This document shows, piece after piece, positions 16,491 through 60,046 of a stretch of DNA of 64,000 nt (position 1 is the stretch's first letter; every line of letters starts with the position of its first letter). The notes beneath the pieces were generated by a model that did no database searches, had not been told where the DNA came from, and worked only from the letters and a program-made list of their open reading frames with translations. The stretch comes from Minisyncoccota bacterium (lineage in GTDB: Bacteria > Patescibacteriota > Minisyncoccia > Phycocordibacterales > SW-6-46-9): positions 595,403 to 659,402 of the forward strand of contig JBBDRP010000002.1 of the NCBI GenBank assembly GCA_040905385.1. Direction: 5' to 3'. Made by a program: the position numbers and the translations under genes.

Positions 16491-18293
16491 CTACTTATCC
16501 GACTTAAGACGCCTGCCTTCGTCCAGAATCTTTTTTCGCAGCCGTGTGCTCTTTGGGGTTATTTCCAGATACTCATCGCTGGACATGATTTCCAGACCGC
16601 GCTCGATCGTTACCGGCGTCGGTGGGGCCAGGTCAACATTCTCATCCGATCCGCTAGCACGCATGTTGGTGAGATTCTTCCCCTTGGTTGGGTTGACCGC
16701 CATCTCATCACCCTTGGCCACGTTTCCGATCACCATGCCTTCATAGACATTCGTGTTCGGTGAAATGTAAAGCTCACCGCGCTGCTGCAGATTATTAAGC
16801 GCAAAAGCCAGCGCCTTACCGGACGACATCGAGGCCATTGATCCCACCGCGCGACGTGCCACCGCACCTGCATACGGCTTGAAACCAATCATCCGCGATG
16901 AGAGAATTCCGGCACCTTTCGTATCTACCACAAACTGACTACGGTATCCCAGCAGTCCTCGCGTCGGACCCTCAAAGGTCATCTGCACGCGTTCACCCGC
17001 CTGCTTCAGATCCTTCATGATGATTTGTCGGGCAGCCAACTTCTCAATAACCGTGCCCTGTGTCTCGGCCGGCGTATCTACGTTCACCTCCTCGAAAGGC
17101 TCCATCTTCTTACCATCCACCTCCTTCGTAATTGCCTGGGGCTGGGAAATCTGCAGCTCGTACCCCTCACGACGCATATTCTCCAAAAGAATGGCGATGT
17201 GCAGCTCACCACGGCCACGAACAACCATCTTCCCTTCGAGAAAATCAACATCCAGTCCAACATTAACCTCGATCTCCTTCTCCAGCCGCTCGCGGATCTG
17301 TCGGCCAGTTACGTAGTCACCCTCCTGCCCGGCAAAGGGCGAGTCATTTACTAAAAATTCTAGTGCAATCGTTGGCTCATCAATATGAATGGCCGGCAGT
17401 GGCTCGACATCCTCGCTGCCGGCAATTGTGTCACCAATATAGATATCCTCCAGCCCAGCGACCATTACAATGTCACCGGCCGTTGCCTCATCAACCTCGG
17501 TACGCTGAATCCCCTCGAAGGCAAAAAGCTTGGAGATTTTTCCTGGCTGTACACTGCCGTCAGGTTTTTCGACAAACACCTTCATGCCGGCGGCGAGAGA
17601 GCCTTCATACACACGTGCAATTGCCAGCCGACCCAGGAAATTATCATAGGCCAGATTAAACGGCTGTGCCTGTAGATCGGCGGACTCAGTCGAAACATCC
17701 TCTCCAGCCGCCGGTGGTACCTCCTTCAAGATTGTGTCCAAAAGTGGTGTCATATCAACCGGATCATCGGTCGTCTCATACATGGCTGCACCTTCAATCC
17801 CGATTGCATACAGGCTGGTAAACTCCAGCTGTGTCTCATCACCCTCTGTCTCAGCCACCAGGTCAAAGAAAAGCTCCAGCACCTCGTCCTGAACACGGTC
17901 GGGATCAGCCGCCGGCTTATCAATCTTGTTGATCACCACAATCGGCTTCAGCCCAAGCTCTAATGACTTTTTTAGTACAAAGCGCGTCTGTGGCATCGGC
18001 CCCTCCTGTGCATCCACAATTAGGAGTACTGCGTCAATACTGCGCAACACGCGCTCCACTTCCGAGCCGAAGTCGGCGTGTCCTGGTGTATCCACAATAT
18101 TAATCTTGGTATCCTTCCAGCGGACCGAGGTATTTTTGGAGTAAATCGTAATGCCTCGCTCCTTCTCTAGCATATCCGAGTCCATACTCGTATCATCCGT
18201 CACCGCGCCAGTCTGGCGCATGATGGCGTCGGTCAGCGTGGTCTTCCCATGATCCACGTGGGCAATTATGGCAATGTTTCTTATTTCAGACAT
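16491..18293 (-). CDS. typA: Translational GTPase TypA/BipA
   Basis: [24 protein letters not shown] GTPase motifs; 600 aa EF-G-like architecture. Confidence 0.9.
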
Positions 18294-18382
18294 GTATGTT
18301 TTATATTCAATGCATCTTTAAACCCAAAACTATTCGCACCGCCTGCCTGACGGCAGACAGGTAGCCGACAGCTCTAGCTGGC

Positions 18383-18566
18383 GTGGTACCGGGGTGGGCG
18401 ATTATGGCTATTTTCTAATTTCAGACATATAAATGTTATGTTTCCAACTAAATCATCAAACGACCACATCCCGCCGCGCGAAGCTCCTTTGTGCCTCCGA
18501 AGCTTTATGCGAAGGGGTATCGAGCGAAGTGAGGTGGGCTATAATTGCAATGTTTCTAATTTCCAT
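18383..18566. repeat. Two decayed tandem copies (~135-bp period) of the typA 5' end, start codon included
   Basis: Copies at 18393-18428 and 18533-18566, versus the genuine 18257-18293. Confidence 0.6.
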
Positions 18567-20131: not shown

Positions 20132-20464
20132 TTAACTATCCTCCTCATTATTACTGTCAGAAATCTCTTCACGGATCACCTCTGGATACTCGGGAAAGAA
20201 GGTTTGAATATCAGACAGCGCGAAGCTCGACATTATATCAGCCGAGGACTCGCGCTGCAGCAGGAAGGAGAAGCTTGCCCAGACAAATCTTTTGGGTGTT
20301 ACGGCTTCATCCGTAAGCTCCTGGTAATAATCTCGGGAAAGCGTCACAGTATGCTTCGTGCCGGCCGGCGTCTCGACTGCGAACTCCCATCCAGCATCGG
20401 TTTCCTTTTTATCTGTAATGGTGATTGGAGACATCCCCTCTATTATTACATACCCCAGTACCAC
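20132..20464 (-). CDS. Hypothetical protein
   Basis: 110-aa ORF in an operon-like arrangement with the nuclease. Confidence 0.35.
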   Translation of the reverse strand: MVLGYVIIEGMSPITITDKKETDAGWEFAVETPAGTKHTVTLSRDYYQELTDEAVTPKRFVWASFSFLLQRESSADIMSSFALSDIQTFFPEYPEVIREEISDSNNEEDS

Positions 20465-20565
20465 GTCAGCTAAAGCTGTCGGCTACCTGTCAGCCGTCAG
20501 GAAGGCGAGGCAAGAAGTTTCCACTAATCTCAGTAATAAGACTGAAGACGTGTTGGAAACATAAA

Positions 20566-35010: not shown

Positions 35011-35046
35011 GAATAAGGCCAAAAGCTAAATAACTCACCCGGATGA
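35011..35046. terminator. Hairpin GCTAAATAACTCA-cccgga-TGAGTTATTTAGC, a terminator-like element that recurs at 56038-56069
   Basis: Perfect 13-bp inverted repeat; A4/T4 flanks. Confidence 0.5.
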
Positions 35047-35116
35047 GTTATTTAGCCCGTCGGTCGGTTCATAACCTTTACGAATTTTCTATCTTCTTCT
35101 TGGCGACCACCAGGAA

Positions 35117-47366: not shown

Positions 47367-48443
47367 CTACATCTTTATCACCCGTTTAGCAAACAGCTTC
47401 TGGGCAAACCCAACATTTGATACCACCCAGCCGACCAGCTTGAGACCGCCAGCTATCAGCGGATTATTGGTTAGCACCAGCTTGCGGGCTCGCTCGGTGC
47501 CGTCTATTACACGCTTCGCTTTGGCTCGCCTGGTTACTGCGTACGTGCTGATCGTGTTATCAACGATCGCCGCGACAACCGCCTGCCCGTCATCAATCCC
47601 CAGGTTCATCCCCCGACCACCCACCGGCGAGTGCGCGTGCGCCGCATCACCGGCCAAAACTACGCGCCCTTTTACATAGTCGTGAGCCTGGCGCACCGAA
47701 ATTTGGAAGGTTCCGGTATGCAGCACTTCTTTGATGTCCAGATCTATCGGCAGTACCGCCAGACTGTCCGGCGTAGAAGAAACCAGCCGTACGCGATTGG
47801 GTGCCATCGGGAACATCACCATAGCATCGCGCTGATCACGATCGCCATCCAGCATCCAGGCGGTGATTTTGTGGGTATCATAGGCGCCCTCCTCCAGCTG
47901 GAGATCAGCAATCGACCAGGTCTCCGGCAGCTCGTAGCCAGCGTAGTCTATGCCCATCGTATCGCGTACCGCCGAGTTGACCCCGTCGGCACCGATGATC
48001 CAGTCGTAGCTGCGGCGGCTTCCATCGGCAAAGGTAGCGGAGGCAGACGCTTTATCAGTCTGGACATCCGTTACCTTCCTACCGTACTGCACCTGCACAC
48101 CCAGCTCGGCCAGCTTCTGGCTCATGATTGTCTCGGTTTTATCCTGCGGCAGACCGATAATAAACTCAGACGGCGCAAAGAACTGATCAACATCAACATC
48201 GATCAGCCGCTTGCCGTCGCGGTAGATGTTGACGCGGCGGACATCCATACCCGCCGCTACCACCTGGTCACCGACACCGGTACGATTCATGATATCGATA
48301 CTTTTCGGTAGGATACCCACCGCCCGCGATAGCGGCGACGGCTGATCCTTAGCATCAACAATCTCCGGGGTAATCCCGCGGCGCGCCAGCTCTAACGCAG
48401 TTGTCTGGCCGGTCGGCCCGGCCCCGACGATTAGTATATTCAT
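47367..48443 (-). CDS. FAD-dependent monooxygenase (UbiH/PheA-class)
   Basis: MNILIVGAGPTGQTTALELARRG dinucleotide-binding motif; GDAAH; start at MNIL. Confidence 0.75.
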   Translation of the reverse strand: MNILIVGAGPTGQTTALELARRGITPEIVDAKDQPSPLSRAVGILPKSIDIMNRTGVGDQVVAAGMDVRRVNIYRDGKRLIDVDVDQFFAPSEFIIGLPQDKTETIMSQKLAELGVQVQYGRKVTDVQTDKASASATFADGSRRSYDWIIGADGVNSAVRDTMGIDYAGYELPETWSIADLQLEEGAYDTHKITAWMLDGDRDQRDAMVMFPMAPNRVRLVSSTPDSLAVLPIDLDIKEVLHTGTFQISVRQAHDYVKGRVVLAGDAAHAHSPVGGRGMNLGIDDGQAVVAAIVDNTISTYAVTRRAKAKRVIDGTERARKLVLTNNPLIAGGLKLVGWVVSNVGFAQKLFAKRVIKM

Positions 48444-48492
48444 ACCTTTATTATGACACGGCATTCGCTTGTTTACAGGCTGGTGTGTTTAT

Positions 48493-48726
48493 GCTACTTT
48501 TATTTTAGATTTCATTAATTTATACGTGCAGGGTTTGCTCAGTTACTGCCATGCTGTGATTTTCCTGCACGTCCTGAAGGTGGGGGTTCCGATGCACTCC
48601 ACCAGGTCGGCTGTCATTAAGACGGTCGACCTTTTTTATTTCCTCTCCAGCATCTGCTGGCGACGGACAATCGTAAACGTACCAACACACGAACCTACGC
48701 TAAATAGCGTGGGTTCATGCTTCTAA
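48493..48726. repeat. Copy A of a twice-occurring ~200-bp intergenic module (hairpin-rich candidate sRNA + remnant of the 3' end of the 51171..51479 gene)
   Basis: 48493-48650 matches 50900-51050 at about 75%; 48636-48700 encodes on the minus strand ...GTFTIVRRQQMLERK*, mirroring the C-terminus of the 51171..51479 product. Confidence 0.6.
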
Positions 48727-48746
48727 AATTTAATATAATCAGTTTC

Positions 48747-49706
48747 CTACTCAGCGTCATCACGAAGTGTTCGCTCCACACCTTCCTCCTCAACAGAGAT
48801 CATCACGTCATGATCTGCCCGCAGACGAGCTGTTAGTTGTGCAAAGATATTTTCATCAACCTTCTGAGCTAAGAAGCTGTACCACGGATAATCCACAGTC
48901 ACCTCACCATTACTGGTGGCTCGGGCTGTTGCTGTCGCTTGCGTTGGAATAAAACCAAACAAACGCAGACGTGTTTTGTAGCGCACCTCGGTCGTCTCCT
49001 TGTCAGACGCAATATCAACCACGTCTTCGTTATCTAGCGCAGCCGATGCTACGCGCAGACCAAAGTCATTAGCGGTAGTTATCTCACTCGCGGCCTGTAA
49101 TCGAGACCGGACTTCTTCCTTCTGCTCCTCGCTCCATCCACGAACATCATCACCAGAAACCCGAATAGAAACATCAGCGCGTGTTGGTGGTTGGTTTGTG
49201 TCATCGTCATCATCACAATCATCTCCTGTACACACATCACCACGGACGCGAATCTCTACCCCTACATTCTGCAGTGGACTGTTTTCATCAATTGAAAGGG
49301 CTTCTATGAGTTTTGGTGTAGTTTTGTCAATCCGCTTCCCGGCTCTGGAAGTGCCATCAATAATCCCATCGTCATCACTATCAGCATCATTCGGATCAAT
49401 GGCTGCTGAAGTAGTGCTGTTTGATCGAGCATCAGCACCATCCGCTGCCCGTACATCACTATATCCATCGCCATCGGTATCTCCGTCATCTCTGACCGTC
49501 GACCGGTTAGAGCGAGAATTGTTATAATTAGCCTCTTGCTGTTCCGATGTTTGCTCGTCATCAGCCGTATCTGTATCACCCTCACTACGCACCTCTGTCT
49601 GCTGCTGCGCTTCAACACGAACATCTGTCTGTGCCTGCGTGATAAATGCACCCGTCAGAAAAACGGCGATAGTAAGTGCGGTAGTTATGATTAGTTTATT
49701 TTTCAT
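48747..49706 (-). CDS. Secreted acidic protein with Asp-rich Ca-binding-like repeats (TSP type 3-like)
   Basis: Signal; DDGDTDGDGYSD, DPNDADSDDDGIIDG, CTGDDCDDDDD. Confidence 0.45.
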   Translation of the reverse strand: MKNKLIITTALTIAVFLTGAFITQAQTDVRVEAQQQTEVRSEGDTDTADDEQTSEQQEANYNNSRSNRSTVRDDGDTDGDGYSDVRAADGADARSNSTTSAAIDPNDADSDDDGIIDGTSRAGKRIDKTTPKLIEALSIDENSPLQNVGVEIRVRGDVCTGDDCDDDDDTNQPPTRADVSIRVSGDDVRGWSEEQKEEVRSRLQAASEITTANDFGLRVASAALDNEDVVDIASDKETTEVRYKTRLRLFGFIPTQATATARATSNGEVTVDYPWYSFLAQKVDENIFAQLTARLRADHDVMISVEEEGVERTLRDDAE

Positions 49707-49823
49707 ATAAATAGTATATTTAAATCCATTAATTAGTCTTCCTTTATAGTAGCACGTATCTACTCGGGTGTTATAGACTTACTGGATTTTTTCTGGATCT
49801 GCTAGCCAGTATGGAGTAACCAT

Positions 49824-49854
49824 CAAAAAACCCACGCCATGTGGCGCGGTTTTT
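49824..49854. terminator. Bidirectional intrinsic terminator
   Basis: AAAAAACCCACGCCatgtGGCGCGGTTTTTT. Confidence 0.55.
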
Positions 49855-49886
49855 TGAGTCCTTGATATCCTTTATCAGAACTAACT

Positions 49887-50738
49887 CTAGCGACTATCCA
49901 TTCCCGTGTTAACAAACTTAATACACAGCCCCTGGTTCTTGAAGCCGTAATCTTCCCAACCACCCTTCATACAGTCCTCTTTCGTCTGCGGATTCAGCTG
50001 ACCAACATGCCAATGGGCAGCATAATCTCCGTTATCAAGGTTCGGGAATGTATCTTCACCATAGTTGTAGCTGTTCAGGAAGAACTCACGTAGGAAGTTT
50101 TCACCACCTGGTCCGCGAGCAACCTCGTCACCGTTGATGTAGAAGACGTACTCTTCAGTACTGGTAGCCAACTCGATGCCAAGCGTTACCCACTCGCCGT
50201 AGGTAAAGTCGGTGTCAAGGTTAGTCCAGCCGTTGGCTGAATCCCACACACGCCAGCCCTCGTGATCACCTTCAGCTGAGTCACCGGAATCACTTGGTTC
50301 CAGATTAACAAACTCGATAATGCCAAACCAGTTATCGCGGTTTCCAGCACCTTCATCACCAACCGTCCAGAATCCAGCGCGAACGGCCTGGTCCTGCCAG
50401 TCCTCATCAATATACAGGTCAACCTGCATAGCTGTACCAAAGTTTTGTATTTCATCTGCAGCCGTCTTTATTCCTTCTGTACGCTGGAATGTCCCCGGTG
50501 CAGTTTCTGAACTATCAATACCAATTCGCGCCACGTCATCACGCGCAAATGCCGACACCGAAGTCACACCATCAGTCGGAAATGCACGATCCGCTTCCCA
50601 GTCATTATCAAGCTCACTTTGCGTAAATTAATCTAACATCCCGAAATGACTGCTAGCCGCCACATACCCCACTCCAAACAATAAGAGAGTGGCAATAGCG
50701 GCCACTGTCACGGTCGTAGATCGTAATGCTGTTGTCAT
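49887..50738 (-). pseudogene. Secreted beta-sandwich (lectin/glycosidase-like) protein gene with an in-frame TAA between the signal peptide and the mature domain
   Basis: ATG at 50738 encodes MTTALRSTTVTVAAIATLLLFGVGYVAASSHFGMLD, then TAA at 50628-50630, then the same frame continues FTQSELDNDWEADRAFPTDGV-TSVSAFARDD... (track ORF 49887..50567 starts at a GTG). Confidence 0.5.
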
Positions 50739-50899
50739 AAATTATAGTAATGTTATTAGTAAAGAACACTCTTGGTGGTGATTACAGCTCCACCGTACTA
50801 GTTATTATAGTACCTTTTAAGAAAGAAAGGGTTGTATTTGTGGAAAAAACAACTTCCAAGGTAACTACTCTGGATTTATTTACAACTGTATCTATTTTT

Positions 50900-51050
50900 G
50901 CTACTTTTGATTTAGATTTCATTAATTTATGCGTGTGGGTTTTCCTTGGTTATTCCCCTTTGGCTGAGGTTTTTCTGCACGTTGTAAGGTGGGGTTTTAT
51001 CTCCGCCTCACCGGGTCGGCTGCCGAATTCTCGGTAGTCGACTTTTTTTA
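50900..51050. repeat. Copy B (part 1) of the twice-occurring intergenic module
   Basis: Homologous to 48493-48650; ends in a hairpin + T7 (51020-51050). Confidence 0.6.
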
Positions 51051-51140
51051 TTTTCAAGCAAGCACTTCTGTGCTAAATTACACGCAGATCTGTACCACTT
51101 TCCTTTGAGCGGTAAGAGCCATACCTTGCTTACCGATCAG

Positions 51141-51172
51141 GGCCACCTGGTTGCACAGGTGGCCTTTTTTTT
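51141..51172 (+). terminator. Strong plus-strand intrinsic terminator GGCCACCTG-gttgca-CAGGTGGCC + T8
   Basis: Perfect 9-bp GC-rich stem, 6-nt loop, T8; no plus-strand CDS upstream, which suggests a non-coding transcript. Confidence 0.65.
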
Positions 51173-51479
51173 ATTTCCTCTCCAGCATCTGCTGGCGGCG
51201 GACAACTATAAATGTACCAACCCACGAGCCCATCACCAACGGCACGAGGTATAGAATATTTTCCGTAAACGAAAAGATTCCAAAAGCGATGATTATGTAC
51301 ACCACCGCGCCGGATGTCGCTGCCGCCACTGGGCGCTTGTCGGCCACGGCGCTCGTATAGTAGGTATTCAGAGCATCAATGACGATATACGCGATAAAAA
51401 TCAGCAGTGCAATCAAGAAACTGAACTCAGCCCACAGCACCGGCAGCGATACGTCGATAAAATGAGTTACGTAATCCAT
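51171..51479 (-). CDS. Small membrane protein
   Basis: 3 TM; the C-terminus ...GTFIVVRRQQMLERK is duplicated as a remnant at 48636-48700. Confidence 0.4.
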   Translation of the reverse strand: MDYVTHFIDVSLPVLWAEFSFLIALLIFIAYIVIDALNTYYTSAVADKRPVAAATSGAVVYIIIAFGIFSFTENILYLVPLVMGSWVGTFIVVRRQQMLERK

Positions 51480-51535
51480 GTCGACATTATGCCATAAGCT
51501 AAGTTCGGCTCGAGTTTTCGGCGGTCTCGTCTATA

Positions 51536-52261
51536 ATGGACAGCGCAGAGATACCGACACATATGGAAACAATGCCGCTACAAAAGTACCTCGCCCACAA
51601 TGGTTACGGCTCGCGTCGCGACAGCGAAGAGCTGATTCGTGATGGCCGCGTACTGGTCAATGGATCAGTCGCCGAACTGGGCGCCTACGTCGACCCGACA
51701 GACACCGTCGAGGTACCCGACTTCGTCCCCCGCGAGCCCGAGACCTGGGCCTTCTACAAACCCCGCGGAATTGTGACGGTAAATGCCCAGCGCGATAACA
51801 AAGAAATAGCCGACATCACTGACCTGCCCGATGATGTGGTGCCGATCGGCCGACTAGACAAAGACTCCGAGGGCCTGATTCTACTTTCAAACAACAGCCG
51901 CCTGCCGCAGCAGATCCTCGGCTCCGGTGTCGAGAAGGAGTACTTTGTCGAGGTAGACAAAAAGATCACCCACGGCTTCCTGGTCGAGGTTAGAGGCGGC
52001 GTCAGCATCAAGATTCCGGACCGTGGCGGCAATATGCACTGGTACACCACGAAAAAGACCAAGGCCCGCCGCACCAGCCAGACGAGCTTCGAGATCATCC
52101 TGACCGAAGGTAAGAACCGCCAGATCCGTCGCATGTGCGCCGCACTTGGCTACGGCATCCGCACGCTGCGACGCTTCCGCATCGGCGACATTCGCCTCGA
52201 CGGCCTCCAGTCTAGCGAGATGCGAAAGCTTGATTTAGATACAGAGGATAGGGTGTTTTAA
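51536..52261 (+). CDS. rRNA pseudouridine synthase (RsuA/RluB/RluF family)
   Basis: S4-like N-terminus (LQKYLAHNGYGSRRDSEELIRDGRVLVNG) and catalytic GRLDKDSEGLILLSNN. Confidence 0.8.
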   Translation: MDSAEIPTHMETMPLQKYLAHNGYGSRRDSEELIRDGRVLVNGSVAELGAYVDPTDTVEVPDFVPREPETWAFYKPRGIVTVNAQRDNKEIADITDLPDDVVPIGRLDKDSEGLILLSNNSRLPQQILGSGVEKEYFVEVDKKITHGFLVEVRGGVSIKIPDRGGNMHWYTTKKTKARRTSQTSFEIILTEGKNRQIRRMCAALGYGIRTLRRFRIGDIRLDGLQSSEMRKLDLDTEDRVF

Positions 52262-52847
52262 AGCTCGACTGCTTCGGTGTTATATAAGAAAAGAGTGTGC
52301 GAGGTAATAGACAAAGGCGCCGAGTGAACCCCACCAGCCGATGATGGAGATAATGAAGCTCGCTATAATCTTGTGCTGAAGTGGTTGCGGAAGCAGTTCT
52401 GTATCCTTTCCTTTCTTCTCTTGTTTGATGAGATACGGACTTACTACAAAAGACAGAAATAGACCGTTGAGTATCAGCACTACCGCGGCGATGGCATGCG
52501 TATACACCATCCACGAGACCGGCTGCGTACTGTAGAAAATTACGCCGCCAATAATACCCAAGGTGATACCAAGCCAAATGAGCGGCTTAGTTACCTTGTG
52601 CGCCCGGATGGTCGCTTTCGTCCAGTAACCGGACGTACGTGCTAAAAATCCATGCACATCAATCACCGTTACCGCTCCAAGGCCGATGATATAGCCGGCG
52701 AGAAGTATAAAGAGACCGATAAATTCTAAAGAAATATCTAGTGTCATGATTTTTTATTATAGCATTTCTTAAACTACAGCCCGCCGGTCTCCAGCCGGCG
52801 AGATACGCAAGCTGGATTTAGATACAGAGGATAGGGTGTTTTAAGGC
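52224..52847. repeat. 41-bp direct repeats (52224-52264 and 52807-52847) flanking a 540-bp insert that carries gene 52280..52747
   Basis: gaaagcttgatttagatacagaggatagggtgttttaaagct vs gcaagctggatttagatacagaggatagggtgttttaaggct; the first copy is the 3' end of the pseudouridine synthase gene. Confidence 0.65.
52280..52747 (-). CDS. Membrane protein (4-5 TM) carried on the insert between the direct repeats
   Basis: 155 aa, hydrophobic. Confidence 0.4.
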   Translation of the reverse strand: MTLDISLEFIGLFILLAGYIIGLGAVTVIDVHGFLARTSGYWTKATIRAHKVTKPLIWLGITLGIIGGVIFYSTQPVSWMVYTHAIAAVVLILNGLFLSFVVSPYLIKQEKKGKDTELLPQPLQHKIIASFIISIIGWWGSLGAFVYYLAHSFLI

Positions 52848-52905
52848 TTAAACTCTTAAATATCTGCAATAGAAGCAACTTTCATTGCTCTCCTGTACCC
52901 ATTGT

Positions 52906-54366
52906 TTATAAGGCTGAAGATGTGAAAATATCGCCCGATGGCAAGAACTCCAACCGATACTCGCGACCAAGTCCTCGAAACTCTTCGGATTCTTCATGAA
53001 TCAAAAGCGAGCTAAAATCCTCTTCCCACTTTACGCCGTCACAGCCCGAATCAAACGGAAATCCATTCAGCACAATCTGTCGCTTCTCTTGTGGGTTCAA
53101 AAGCAGTACCTCACAAGCCTCGCCGTCTTCAATCGTGTTAGCCACTGCCAACCATGGCTTGCCCTCGGTAACATCAGCCCCAAGTTCGCTGGTTGTCATC
53201 GGGTTATACTCACCGCCGTTGAAACGATCATGGGGTACAGTGATCGGCTGTATCTTCTGTTCTTCCGTATCATAAACCCGCATATTTTTACTATAAATAT
53301 TAACTAGCAGAGCGTGCTCATTATCAAGCCAGCGGATCATTCGGCCGGGGTTAGAAAACGTCTTGGCTTCTCTGGTAGTAGCATCATAAACAAATAAGTC
53401 TTCGCACAAACCATCTATAGACAGCTGGCTAGCATACTTTGTGTTATCTGGGGAAAATGTCCTTGGCGCACTGAAGTCATATGTGCAGACATTACTACTT
53501 TCAGCCAAAACCTCCCCAGAACTGTCACGAAATTGAACATACGTTTCGCCAGTTACTGAATTATCATATATGAAAAATTCACCATCAACGTCTGCTGATT
53601 TTGGCACCACAGTTAAGCCAGATGTACCCGGCCGTTGATTATTTCGGGACGCTGAACTTCCGCCATTGAAATGATACAGACGGCTTGCAGTGCCGGTAAA
53701 CTGCACATTGAAAATATCCGAATGCTCTGACACATCATACGTTACCGACGTTATCTCACCTTCGGCCGCTCGACGTTCTATACCACCCTGAATAATGGCC
53801 GGTGCACTTAGAAGATATCCCAAAAGCGGCCATATCATTATCGCCAGCACAGCTGCTAGCAACGAATGCATCACACGACTCTTGCTCAAGTACCGATACA
53901 CTGGAAGCAGCCACCAAGAGATGAGCCAGGACATCCCACCAGCAGTAATCATAGCAAAAAATGGAATGATGAAGAGAGCTCCTGCGAGACCACTTTGCGG
54001 AAATAGTGTGGCCGTAATGTCATTTCCGACCAAGCTAAAGAAATGACCGTAAAAAAGTAGAAAAGAACCAATTGTCATCAGTGCAGCTAGGCAGATAAAG
54101 AATCGTGTGTAACCATTCTTCCATCGCCGGCGAACATAAATAGCAATTGCAGAAACCACCACACCTATAGCTAGCAAAATCAACCCGGTAGTGAAGGCAT
54201 CTTCCAGCCCAACAAGATTCTCTACGAAAAATGGAAAGCCAAAGTAAGGTACGACAAAGGCTCCGATCAAAAAGATACCCACTACAATAGTGCGAACGAT
54301 AGGAAAATTAGCCTTGTCCGATTGATTGGCTAATTCCGGAGCCTGTTGTGCATCTGGTGTATTCAT
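52906..54366 (-). CDS. Large membrane protein: N-terminal polytopic domain + C-terminal beta-propeller-like periplasmic domain
   Basis: About 10 TM then a TolB/WD40-like low-complexity pattern (YDVSEHSDIFNVQF...VYDTEEQKIQPI...). Confidence 0.4.
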   Translation of the reverse strand: MNTPDAQQAPELANQSDKANFPIVRTIVVGIFLIGAFVVPYFGFPFFVENLVGLEDAFTTGLILLAIGVVVSAIAIYVRRRWKNGYTRFFICLAALMTIGSFLLFYGHFFSLVGNDITATLFPQSGLAGALFIIPFFAMITAGGMSWLISWWLLPVYRYLSKSRVMHSLLAAVLAIMIWPLLGYLLSAPAIIQGGIERRAAEGEITSVTYDVSEHSDIFNVQFTGTASRLYHFNGGSSASRNNQRPGTSGLTVVPKSADVDGEFFIYDNSVTGETYVQFRDSSGEVLAESSNVCTYDFSAPRTFSPDNTKYASQLSIDGLCEDLFVYDATTREAKTFSNPGRMIRWLDNEHALLVNIYSKNMRVYDTEEQKIQPITVPHDRFNGGEYNPMTTSELGADVTEGKPWLAVANTIEDGEACEVLLLNPQEKRQIVLNGFPFDSGCDGVKWEEDFSSLLIHEESEEFRGLGREYRLEFLPSGDIFTSSAL

Positions 54367-54425
54367 ATATTTATTGTAGCGTAGTTTTTGGTGTTACATA
54401 ATAGCTACTAGTAGCTATTTTATGA

Positions 54426-55043
54426 TTATTTATCTTGAGACAATTCTCTAAATTCAGCAATAATTTCATCCGGACCTTCCTCGCGAGCAATCTCCAGAGC
54501 ACGGAAATAATCGGTTGCCTCTTTATAAATTGTATCCTTAACATCAATATCAGGAGCCAAGTCACCGAGTATCCGTATCAAAAGCGCATAAATAATTATG
54601 TGATTCTGGGTCAACTTTGATTCATCTACCCATTTCTCGCGTACCTTACTCCAGTAATTTCCTACGCAGGGTACAGCTTCTCTGTCACCGGCAAACCGAT
54701 GTAGAAGCTCATGAATTACCAACTCCGTACGCTTGTCACGACCTTGCCCTTCCAGTGACATCACCGGCAGGATAAGTGGTGTCGACATAGCTCCCAATCC
54801 ACCACCAATCACAAAAACCTCAATATCACGTGGGTACGTAATACCAGTAATATCAATTATCTTTTTTATAACGGAGTCGTCTTTATTTATTTCAGACCAC
54901 AACTCTCGCCAAATCTGCACTTCCTTATTTACTCTTTTCTTACTTGGGTACCCTTCAAGATCTTTCCGCTTGAAAAGCTGCCGCCGATTACGATCCAGCG
55001 GATAGGCATACTTGAATACAACTTGTGGGATACGTTCTGACAT
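54426..55043 (-). CDS. Hypothetical protein with an HEXXH motif (possible metallopeptidase-like)
   Basis: TELVIHELLHRF. Confidence 0.35.
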   Translation of the reverse strand: MSERIPQVVFKYAYPLDRNRRQLFKRKDLEGYPSKKRVNKEVQIWRELWSEINKDDSVIKKIIDITGITYPRDIEVFVIGGGLGAMSTPLILPVMSLEGQGRDKRTELVIHELLHRFAGDREAVPCVGNYWSKVREKWVDESKLTQNHIIIYALLIRILGDLAPDIDVKDTIYKEATDYFRALEIAREEGPDEIIAEFRELSQDK

Positions 55044-56037: not shown

Positions 56038-56069
56038 GCTAAATAACTCAACCGGTTGAGTTATTTAAC
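56038..56069. repeat. Second copy of the GCTAAATAACTCA...TGAGTTATTTA hairpin (compare 35015-35046)
   Basis: GCTAAATAACTCAA-ccgg-TTGAGTTATTTAAC, overlapping the stop of 56061..56360. Confidence 0.5.
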
Positions 56070-56360
56070 CTCGTAGTGGACAGAGCGGCCAGAGGTGCCA
56101 ATCTGCTCGATTAGGTCCTCGGCTTCGAGCGCGTCCAAATATCGGGTCGCCGTCGCGTGTGATAAATCCAAAAGTGCCTCGACATCATCATTAGTGATAG
56201 TGTCATGATCATCCAGGTACGCGACCAGCCGCTCGATATTATCTTTCTTCTCTGTCTGGCTGCGCTGGATCAATGACGCATCTTCGCTGGCACCGTTAAC
56301 CTGCAAATATATGAGCGCACCACCAACCCCGACAATTATTCCCATGAGAAAGTAAAGCAT
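56061..56360 (-). CDS. Membrane-anchored winged-helix DNA-binding protein
   Basis: N-terminal TM (YFLMGIIVGVGGALIYL) + C-terminal wHTH (TNDDVEALLDLSHATATRYLDALEAEDLIEQ). Confidence 0.5.
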   Translation of the reverse strand: MLYFLMGIIVGVGGALIYLQVNGASEDASLIQRSQTEKKDNIERLVAYLDDHDTITNDDVEALLDLSHATATRYLDALEAEDLIEQIGTSGRSVHYEVK

Positions 56361-58610: not shown

Positions 58611-58690
58611 TTACCATCCACACAGCACGTAAAGAAGTGCGACTGTGGGCGCAAGGCACACAGCCGCCGGGAATGTTGGCCAAAGAACAT
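58611..58690 (-). promoter_or_regulatory. Intergenic cassette copy 1: GC-rich imperfect palindrome (58637-58668) + CTTCTTT + GTGTGGATGGTAAGATATAAT promoter box
   Basis: About 85% identical over ~77 bp to copy 3 (59975-60046). Confidence 0.55.
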
Positions 58691-59297: not shown

Positions 59298-59360
59298 TAT
59301 TACCACCCATAAAGAAGGCGGCTGTGTGCACAAAGCACACAGCCGCCAGGTATTTTTACC
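59298..59360 (-). promoter_or_regulatory. Intergenic cassette copy 2: perfect 13-bp inverted repeat GGCGGCTGTGTGC-acaaa-GCACACAGCCGCC (59317-59347) + TGGTAATAT extended -10 box
   Basis: The palindrome sits at the -35 position relative to the box; the ATG at 59290 follows 7 nt after the box. Confidence 0.55.
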
Positions 59361-59974: not shown

Positions 59975-60046
59975 TTACCATCCACACCTTCCGAAAAGAA
60001 GGCGGCTGTGGGCGCAAGGCACACAGCCGCCAAGAATTGGCCTAAA
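59975..60046 (-). promoter_or_regulatory. Intergenic cassette copy 3: GGCGGCTGTGGGCGC-aag-GCACACAGCCGCC (60000-60030) + CTTCTTTTCGG + GTGTGGATGGTAATAT
   Basis: Begins about 10 nt after the stop of 60056..60823 and ends 13 nt before the ATG of the NYN gene. Confidence 0.55.

Follow-up and report, generated by a model that had tools for sequence, protein, structure and literature searches.

Neighboring paralogous small RNA (sRNA) genes, each about 100 nucleotides (nt) long and equipped with its own promoter and rho-independent terminator, are familiar from OmrA/OmrB of Escherichia coli and PrrF1/PrrF2 of Pseudomonas. In a second well-described arrangement, a convergent cis-antisense RNA lies over the 3' end of a gene, as in the type I toxin-antitoxin pairs txpA/RatA and bsrG/SR4 of Bacillus subtilis and fst/RNAII of Enterococcus, where the toxins with such a 3' overlap are small and hydrophobic, usually under 60 amino acids (aa). 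In a third, foreign DNA inserted at tRNA, transfer-messenger RNA (tmRNA), or sRNA loci leaves behind part of its target as a direct repeat; one such insertion hot spot is the ryeA/ryeB sRNA locus of Salmonella. In this study, we describe a locus that shares features with all three. It lies in a 64,000-nt stretch (referred to here as the window, with positions counted from its first letter) of contig JBBDRP010000002.1, from the Minisyncoccota assembly GCA_040905385.1. The best-supported reading is that the locus consists of two diverged copies, A and B, of a plus-strand candidate sRNA gene of roughly 115 nt in an uncultured bacterium of the candidate phyla radiation (CPR). The element matches no described RNA family but is of a familiar kind.

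Like OmrA/OmrB and PrrF1/PrrF2, the element occurs as two nearby copies with conserved ends and a diverged center, with promoters that in this case are putative. Unlike those pairs, to which it has no sequence or Rfam relationship, it belongs to a CPR host, has its copies 2.4 kb and two genes apart, and is known from sequence alone.

The two copies form diverged, collinear direct repeats at positions 48469-48697 (copy A) and 50876-51232 (copy B), as delimited by the repeat finder and a MAFFT alignment; the repeat finder paired 48469-48550 with 50876-50957 (74% identity), 48577-48613 with 50986-51022 (73% identity), and the 64 nt of 48632-48695 with 51167-51230 (89% identity). Along the unit, the outer 23 nt are 57% identical between the copies, a 37-nt AT-rich block (48492-48528 and 50899-50935) is 92% identical, and the folded body of approximately 103 nt is approximately 67% identical with three small indels; a T-run together with the last 20 codons of gene Z, which form the right end of the repeat, is 88% identical. 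Gene Z (51171..51479, minus strand) is intact and converges on the module; it encodes a small hydrophobic, probably membrane, protein of 102 aa. A 2.4-kb pair of genes, X and Y, separates the copies. Only these two copies, in the same orientation, are present in the 64 kb: exact or near-exact probes from the conserved blocks match nowhere else, with 0 matches expected by chance, and a covariance model built from the pair (R1) scored 132 and 130 bits on the two copies, with a next-best window match of 12.7 bits. With two same-facing copies only in the window, the element does not have the character of a dispersed repeat of the repetitive extragenic palindromic or miniature inverted-repeat transposable element type. 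Logan contigs from run SRR27977661, an independent assembly, matched window positions 48633-51196 and 51168-52717 at 100% identity; therefore, the sequence itself is not an artifact. The copies share an exact 31-mer (48632-48662 and 51167-51197), and each contig end that reaches a copy stops within it, presumably as an assembly graph with k = 31 would do; the linear order of copies A and B rests on the assembler of the metagenome-assembled genome (MAG).

Each unit would be a self-contained plus-strand transcription unit in which a promoter-like block precedes an RNA of approximately 110 to 125 nt that carries hairpins P1 and P2 and ends in terminator P3. P1 is a long hairpin with internal loops, and P2 is a G+C-rich hairpin; both appear in the minimum-free-energy (MFE) folds and in the consensus structure of the two copies. 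In copy A, P1 (48524..48572) has the outer stem ACGUGCAGG(G)/(U)CCUGCACGU and an inner stem-loop, and P2 (48579..48603) is formed by GGUGGGG...CUCCACC, with a conserved AAGGUGGGG just before it. P3 with its T6 run (48604..48637; 12 pairs, 7 of them G-C) is an intrinsic terminator according to both the terminator scan and the fold, and its T-run overlaps the stop codon of a remnant of a gene Z homologue. In copy B, the corresponding plus-strand elements are P1 (50931..50982), P2 (50988..51012), and P3 with a T7 run (51013..51049; 14 pairs), again an intrinsic terminator in both scan and fold. Copy B P1 differs from that of copy A at four outer-stem and two inner-stem pairs, all of which are kept as G·U. 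The terminator scan returned 15 sites in 47-53 kb compared to 4.5 expected, and the three strongest terminator-like sites in that interval (48604-48632, 51013-51044, and 51139-51166) are all on the plus strand. These rho-independent terminators thus lie on the same strand as the candidate, with no plus-strand gene to serve, as befits a free-standing sRNA. A preliminary description of this DNA had claimed two homologous copies, inverted repeats within them, a hairpin and T-run at the end of each, and an extra terminator after copy B. The first claim was borne out by the repeat finder, the MAFFT alignment, and the probe counts, and the last two by the terminator scan; the inverted repeats, CGTGCAGG/CCTGCACG and GGTGG/CCACC, proved to be the P1 and P2 stems of the MFE folds.

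As plus-strand RNA, copies A and B folded with MFE values of -54.9 and -57.2 kcal/mol (z = -6.0 and -7.9), and none of 200 shuffled sequences (0/200) did as well; the minus-strand RNA gave z values of only -2.7 and -2.0. Modeled as single-stranded DNA (ssDNA), the plus strand was weaker than as RNA, especially for copy B (z = -4.3 and -3.0), and the minus strand gave -3.2 and -0.4. All 33 pairs of the consensus structure (33/33) form in both copies, with one compensatory change, from U-A to C-G, and 12 one-sided changes, mostly from A-U or G-C to G·U. We also placed the 34 observed substitutions, with their types kept, at random positions over the MFE structure of one copy in 5,000 trials. From A to B, 33 of the 36 copy A pairs survived, a level that 0.08% of the random placements reached (0.02% when the run was repeated), and by energy p was <= 0.0002; from B to A, p was 0.011 for pairs and 0.0004 to 0.0006 for energy. 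The same randomization of the minus strand gave p values of 0.10 and 0.93. From these folds and tests, it is concluded that a plus-strand single-stranded structure, best modeled as RNA, has been preserved while the sequence drifted; the two available sequences thus show what is expected of a free-standing sRNA, namely, a structure kept through substitutions on one strand only.

The candidate RNA lacks coding potential. Mechanical plus-strand open reading frames (ORFs) do run over the copies (48469..48726 and 50750..51037); however, over 40 residues their products are 50% identical, a lower figure than for the nucleotides themselves, and no similarity persists past a 1-nt indel; they are therefore not coding. 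A small-protein or type I toxin ORF within the RNA was also considered and was rejected, since the AUG that follows AAGGUGGGGG in copy A is AUC in copy B. The earlier statement that no plus-strand coding sequence lies upstream is to be read in this light: such frames exist, but they are not conserved as protein, and the region is in that sense noncoding. The further suggestion of a plausible plus-strand noncoding transcript of about 150 nt is supported, at the level of a candidate, by the fold z-scores, the strand-specific conservation of pairing, and the promoter-like block; its length is more likely to be approximately 110 to 125 nt.

The AT-rich block may be the promoter of the candidate sRNA. 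A shared pattern, (A/T)TGCTA-N17-ATTAAT, can be read in it on the plus strand: ATGCTA (48491-48496) and ATTAAT (48514-48519) with a 17-nt spacer in copy A (48491..48519), and, with support from the alignment, TTGCTA (50898-50903) and ATTAAT (50921-50926) with the same spacing in copy B (50898..50926).

On balance, we consider it rather probable that the locus holds two versions of a plus-strand sRNA gene that is convergent with gene Z, that this sRNA is probably cis-antisense to a read-through minus-strand mRNA, and that the versions were juxtaposed by a recombination event that inserted genes X and Y. No minus-strand terminator-like site was found between 51171 and 50738 (from Z to Y) or between 48747 and 48443 (from X to a monooxygenase gene); thus, minus-strand mRNAs should read through the modules, and the plus-strand RNAs would then be perfectly complementary to those intergenic or 3' untranslated (UTR) stretches. 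Most likely, they would act in cis as antisense regulators of the convergent mRNA, affecting either its stability or its read-through.

Several points weigh against this interpretation. The promoter-like element fails a strict sigma-70 scan because its -10-like hexamer, ATTAAT, does not have the usual A as its second base, and CPR promoters are poorly known; moreover, the assigned -10 would put the transcription start inside the first P1 pairs. Only two sequences are available, so that a single pair is fully compensatory, with G·U transitions making up the remaining changes. The consensus structure, moreover, comes from the very two sequences on which it is judged, which is why the stricter randomization test was run. 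Rfam 15 gave no match at the gathering threshold in the whole 64-kb window; at E <= 10, the interval 48300-51400 gave only terminator-driven matches, of 15 to 19 bits compared to thresholds of 37 to 57, and none on the P1/P2 body. No homologue was found in pattern scans of genomes, metagenomes, and viral contigs, which required exact matches and would have missed diverged relatives; by blastn in phages or plasmids; or by the covariance model, with filters off, in approximately 60 kb around homologues of gene Z (contigs L040 and L041), the monooxygenase gene (L043 to L045; 62 to 71% aa identity), and gene Y (L046 to L049; 75 to 78%). The nearest relatives compared have only 53 to 78% protein identity, and the failure of these searches is absence of evidence, not evidence of absence.

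A few matches were seen in these searches and set aside. The RNA-body pattern gave 38 matches in the genome collection, in unrelated, mostly GC-rich genomes; they were judged, from their hosts rather than one by one, to be chance matches. The promoter-block pattern gave a single metagenome match, in an enterobacterial-type catalase locus, also regarded as chance, and eight pattern matches in viral contigs were rejected by the covariance model. The best match in the synteny contigs, downstream of gene Y in L046, scored 16.7 bits (E = 0.04) and is not credible; a 19-nt likeness to the AT-rich block upstream of the Y homologue in the same contig (E = 0.14) is absent from L047 and L049 and was treated as chance. 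RNAduplex predictions of targets among 105 start regions of the window returned unrealistic energies and were uninformative.

The main rival explanation, which we regard as possible but unlikely, is that the module has no function as an RNA and is the decaying footprint of a recombination or duplication, whose hairpins are either leftovers or still useful terminators that halt antisense transcription into the minus-strand genes. Such decay would fit a repeat that has only two copies and no homologue in the searches made, and whose RNA body is its most diverged part; 12 of the 33 pairs in copy B are G·U, as decay by transitions might give, and P3 taken alone is not significantly conserved (p = 0.06 to 0.19). 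P1, however, which is not a terminator, keeps its pairing when tested without P3 (p about 0.01 in both directions), and the one-sided changes in the consensus stems lead to G·U on the plus strand and never to A·C. Neutral decay at 67% identity would also not be expected to leave a 92% block upstream of the fold, and a terminator needs transcription to stop, for which the module itself is the only candidate plus-strand source.

We consider it improbable that the minus strand is the functional one, with the module serving as an intergenic or 5' UTR element upstream of the monooxygenase gene (copy A) and gene Y (copy B), either as a processing or stabilizing structure or as their promoter or operator. 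Each copy does lie upstream of a minus-strand gene, with the copy A block 49 nt from the monooxygenase start at 48443, and the lack of minus-strand terminators between the genes means that the module is probably transcribed in antisense as well. Nevertheless, the minus strand folds weakly (z = -2.7 and -2.0) and shows no conservation of its fold (p = 0.10 and 0.93), since the plus-strand G·U pairs turn into C·A mismatches there; furthermore, the distance to the downstream gene differs (49 nt compared to about 160 nt), a separate TATAAT-containing region lies upstream of gene Y (50740-50830), and homologues of the monooxygenase and Y genes lack such an element upstream.

The order of promoter, structured leader, and terminator also resembles an attenuator, and copy B is followed by gene Z in antisense and then, on the plus strand, by a pseudouridine synthase gene at 51536. 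An orphaned cis-regulatory leader (attenuator or riboswitch) of a lost plus-strand gene, or a long antisense leader that runs through Z into the pseudouridine synthase gene, is nonetheless very unlikely. No plus-strand ORF follows copy A for 2.4 kb and no same-strand gene directly follows either terminator; with no real plus-strand gene after either copy, a riboswitch or attenuator would have no gene to regulate. In addition, no Rfam leader or riboswitch came near threshold, the folds contain no alternative antiterminator pairing, and two or three strong terminators in series argue for termination rather than regulation. Least credible is an ssDNA site at which cassettes are inserted by recombination, as at an integron attC site or an IS200/IS605 end: the copies do flank inserted genes, a second gene 3'-end duplication lies nearby, the pairing is strand specific, and DNA hairpins tolerate G·T pairs, but there is no integrase, Y1 transposase, or other recombinase in 36-64 kb, only two copies in 64 kb, no GTTRRRY core site readable in the sequence, and much weaker folding as ssDNA than as RNA (z = -3.0 for copy B), and the canonical T-runs after the hairpins point to transcription termination.

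The sRNA reading leaves the question of how the two copies came to lie side by side, on which gene Z bears directly. Copy A carries a remnant of a Z homologue (48636..48698, minus strand) that consists of the last 20 codons including the stop, GSCVGTFTIVRRQQMLERK, and aligns with the end of gene Z, GSWVGTFIVVRRQQMLERK; homology ends upstream of there. The preliminary description had noted this remnant, which is real but comprises 20 codons rather than 15, and had proposed that the module and the gene Z 3' end were copied as one, as a duplication or recombination footprint; the joint copying is confirmed. The remnant and gene Z differ at six codons, three synonymously and three nonsynonymously, which is what would be expected from comparing two versions of a single locus that were both functional and evolved apart. 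Had the locus simply been duplicated in place, a noncoding Z remnant would have diverged no less than a constrained RNA; in fact, it has diverged less (88% compared to approximately 67% identity), and the less diverged, half-synonymous remnant is a better fit to the joining of two versions that had already diverged. It is therefore most likely that copies A and B were juxtaposed by recombination or horizontal transfer involving diverged DNA and not by a recent duplication in place, in which case the pairing of module and gene Z existed in two lineages. The event that placed genes X and Y between the copies might have been a single-crossover (Campbell-type) integration of a DNA circle or a homology-anchored illegitimate insertion of foreign DNA.

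A more speculative extension, which we put forward tentatively and hold to be rather unlikely, is that the module and the Z stop-codon region act as a homology anchor for the integrase-free gain and loss of small gene cassettes. It can be envisioned that a DNA circle with a diverged version of the sRNA/gene-end junction would enter through a single crossover and might leave again by way of the 31-nt exact repeat, and that the sRNA would evolve rapidly while keeping its fold, as an antisense partner specific to its own copy. The next inserted gene, 52280..52747, shows the same signature, a flanking gene 3'-end remnant whose differences are mostly synonymous. No recombinase, integrase, or Y1 transposase domain was found in the ORFs of 36-64 kb.

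The surrounding region is variable. In contig L045 (9331-11080), whose monooxygenase is 62% identical to that of the window, a stretch of 43 nt separates the monooxygenase gene from the homologue of window gene 54426..55043 that lies upstream of it; in the window, positions 48464-54426 hold six genes and both modules between the same two genes. The L045 arrangement indicates that 48.46-54.43 kb of the window is a variable, island-like insertion zone without a recombinase gene. A second gene end recurs within it: the final 14 codons of the pseudouridine synthase gene (51536..52261, plus strand), together with its stop, are found again 583 bp downstream (52215-52265 compared to 52798-52848). The 51-nt remnant at 52798-52848, EIRKLDLDTEDRVF and stop compared to EMRKLDLDTEDRVF and stop, is 92% identical, with two synonymous changes and one replacement. 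The two ends flank gene 52280..52747, which encodes a hydrophobic, probably membrane, protein of 155 aa and represents a second gene insertion flanked by a gene 3'-end remnant, less than 2 kb from the first.

The DNA between the copies (48699..50875, matched at 100% identity by a Logan contig) carries genes X and Y on the minus strand. The product of gene X (48747..49706) is acidic, has a hydrophobic segment at its N terminus, and matches no family, and gene Y (49887..50738) belongs to a widely and strongly conserved Patescibacteria family of about 265 to 300 aa. Gene Y has an in-frame TAA at 50628-50630, between an N-terminal hydrophobic segment and the conserved body, and the same stop is found in the Logan assembly; homologues from several Patescibacteria lineages, up to 78% identical, are uninterrupted at 265 to 300 aa. 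Since the stop is confirmed by an independent assembly, gene Y is probably a pseudogene or split. Just upstream of gene Y, on the minus strand (50745-50800), a GGTGG...CCACC hairpin is followed by TGTTCTTTA; the Y homologues of L047 (about 1080-1150) and L048 have a comparable hairpin and motif ahead of them, and these may form a conserved 5' leader of the gene Y family. Copy A lies between the start of a gene for a flavin adenine dinucleotide (FAD)-dependent monooxygenase (true start at 48443) and the Z remnant, and copy B lies between gene Y and the intact gene Z. Gene Z has several predicted hydrophobic segments and belongs to a family of 356 clusters at E <= 0.001, with no match in Pfam or NCBIfam.

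Copy B also contains a segment that copy A lacks (51050..51172, plus strand; approximately 120 to 123 nt according to MAFFT). It folds with a z-score of -4.5 and ends in the strongest terminator of the region, a 9- to 11-bp G+C-rich stem (51139-51166) followed by a T8 run. A promoter-like site, TTTTCA-N17-TGcTAAATT (51051-51079), can be read within it, and the segment may represent a second small transcript of approximately 85 nt or a read-through extension of the copy B transcript. Because TTTTTTTATTT(T/C)C direct repeats of approximately 12 nt bound it, the segment may have been inserted in B or deleted from A by slippage.

Nearly all genes in the window are on the minus strand, the GC skew is negative across it, and no tRNA genes were detected in the 64 kb. 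Other repeats occur at a distance from the locus. Three G+C-rich hairpin copies (58623-58675, 59302-59354, and 59986-60038; GGCGGCTGTG...CACAGCCGCC), 64 to 83% identical and spaced at approximately 680 nt, each follow one of three tandem minus-strand genes, one with an NYN domain; this looks like a tandem gene array with a conserved terminator. Two 69-nt inverted repeats (18327-18395 and 20452-20520) that are 86% complementary and enclose approximately 2 kb may be mobile-element ends or an inverted duplication, and further short direct repeats are present at 18258-18563. A 33-nt perfect-palindrome hairpin, GCTAAATAACTCA.CCGG.TGAGTTATTTAGC, occurs twice, 21 kb apart (35025-35057 and 56038-56070), with 91% identity.

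A full-text literature search found no paper that describes regulatory small RNAs in CPR bacteria or Patescibacteria. The present locus, with its two copies, a fold conserved on one strand, its own terminators, and a partner gene that converges on it, offers a concrete and testable sRNA candidate, and copies that, together with a nearby gene-end remnant, flank inserted genes provide a small, datable example of gene acquisition in reduced genomes. The weight of the finding is lowered by the fact that the element comes so far from a single MAG.

In comparison with known systems, the arrangement is reminiscent of type I toxin-antitoxin pairs, in that the candidate gene for a structured RNA faces, in convergent orientation, one that encodes a small hydrophobic, probably membrane, protein, and the terminator of copy A directly adjoins the stop codon; the pair also appears to travel together, since a single repeat unit comprises both the module and the gene Z 3' end. 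Judged by sequence, gene Z differs from the type I toxins, since it encodes 102 aa and belongs to a broad family rather than being a short, lineage-specific peptide of under 60 aa, and copy B is separated from it by about 120 nt and a second terminator. With respect to its history, the locus differs from the ryeA/ryeB hot spot in having no integrase or mobile-element gene and in having repeats of approximately 230 nt that are 67 to 92% identical instead of short, exact att sites. Like that hot spot, however, it consists of inserted genes flanked by direct repeats of an sRNA locus and its adjacent sequence, in a region that varies relative to a related genome.

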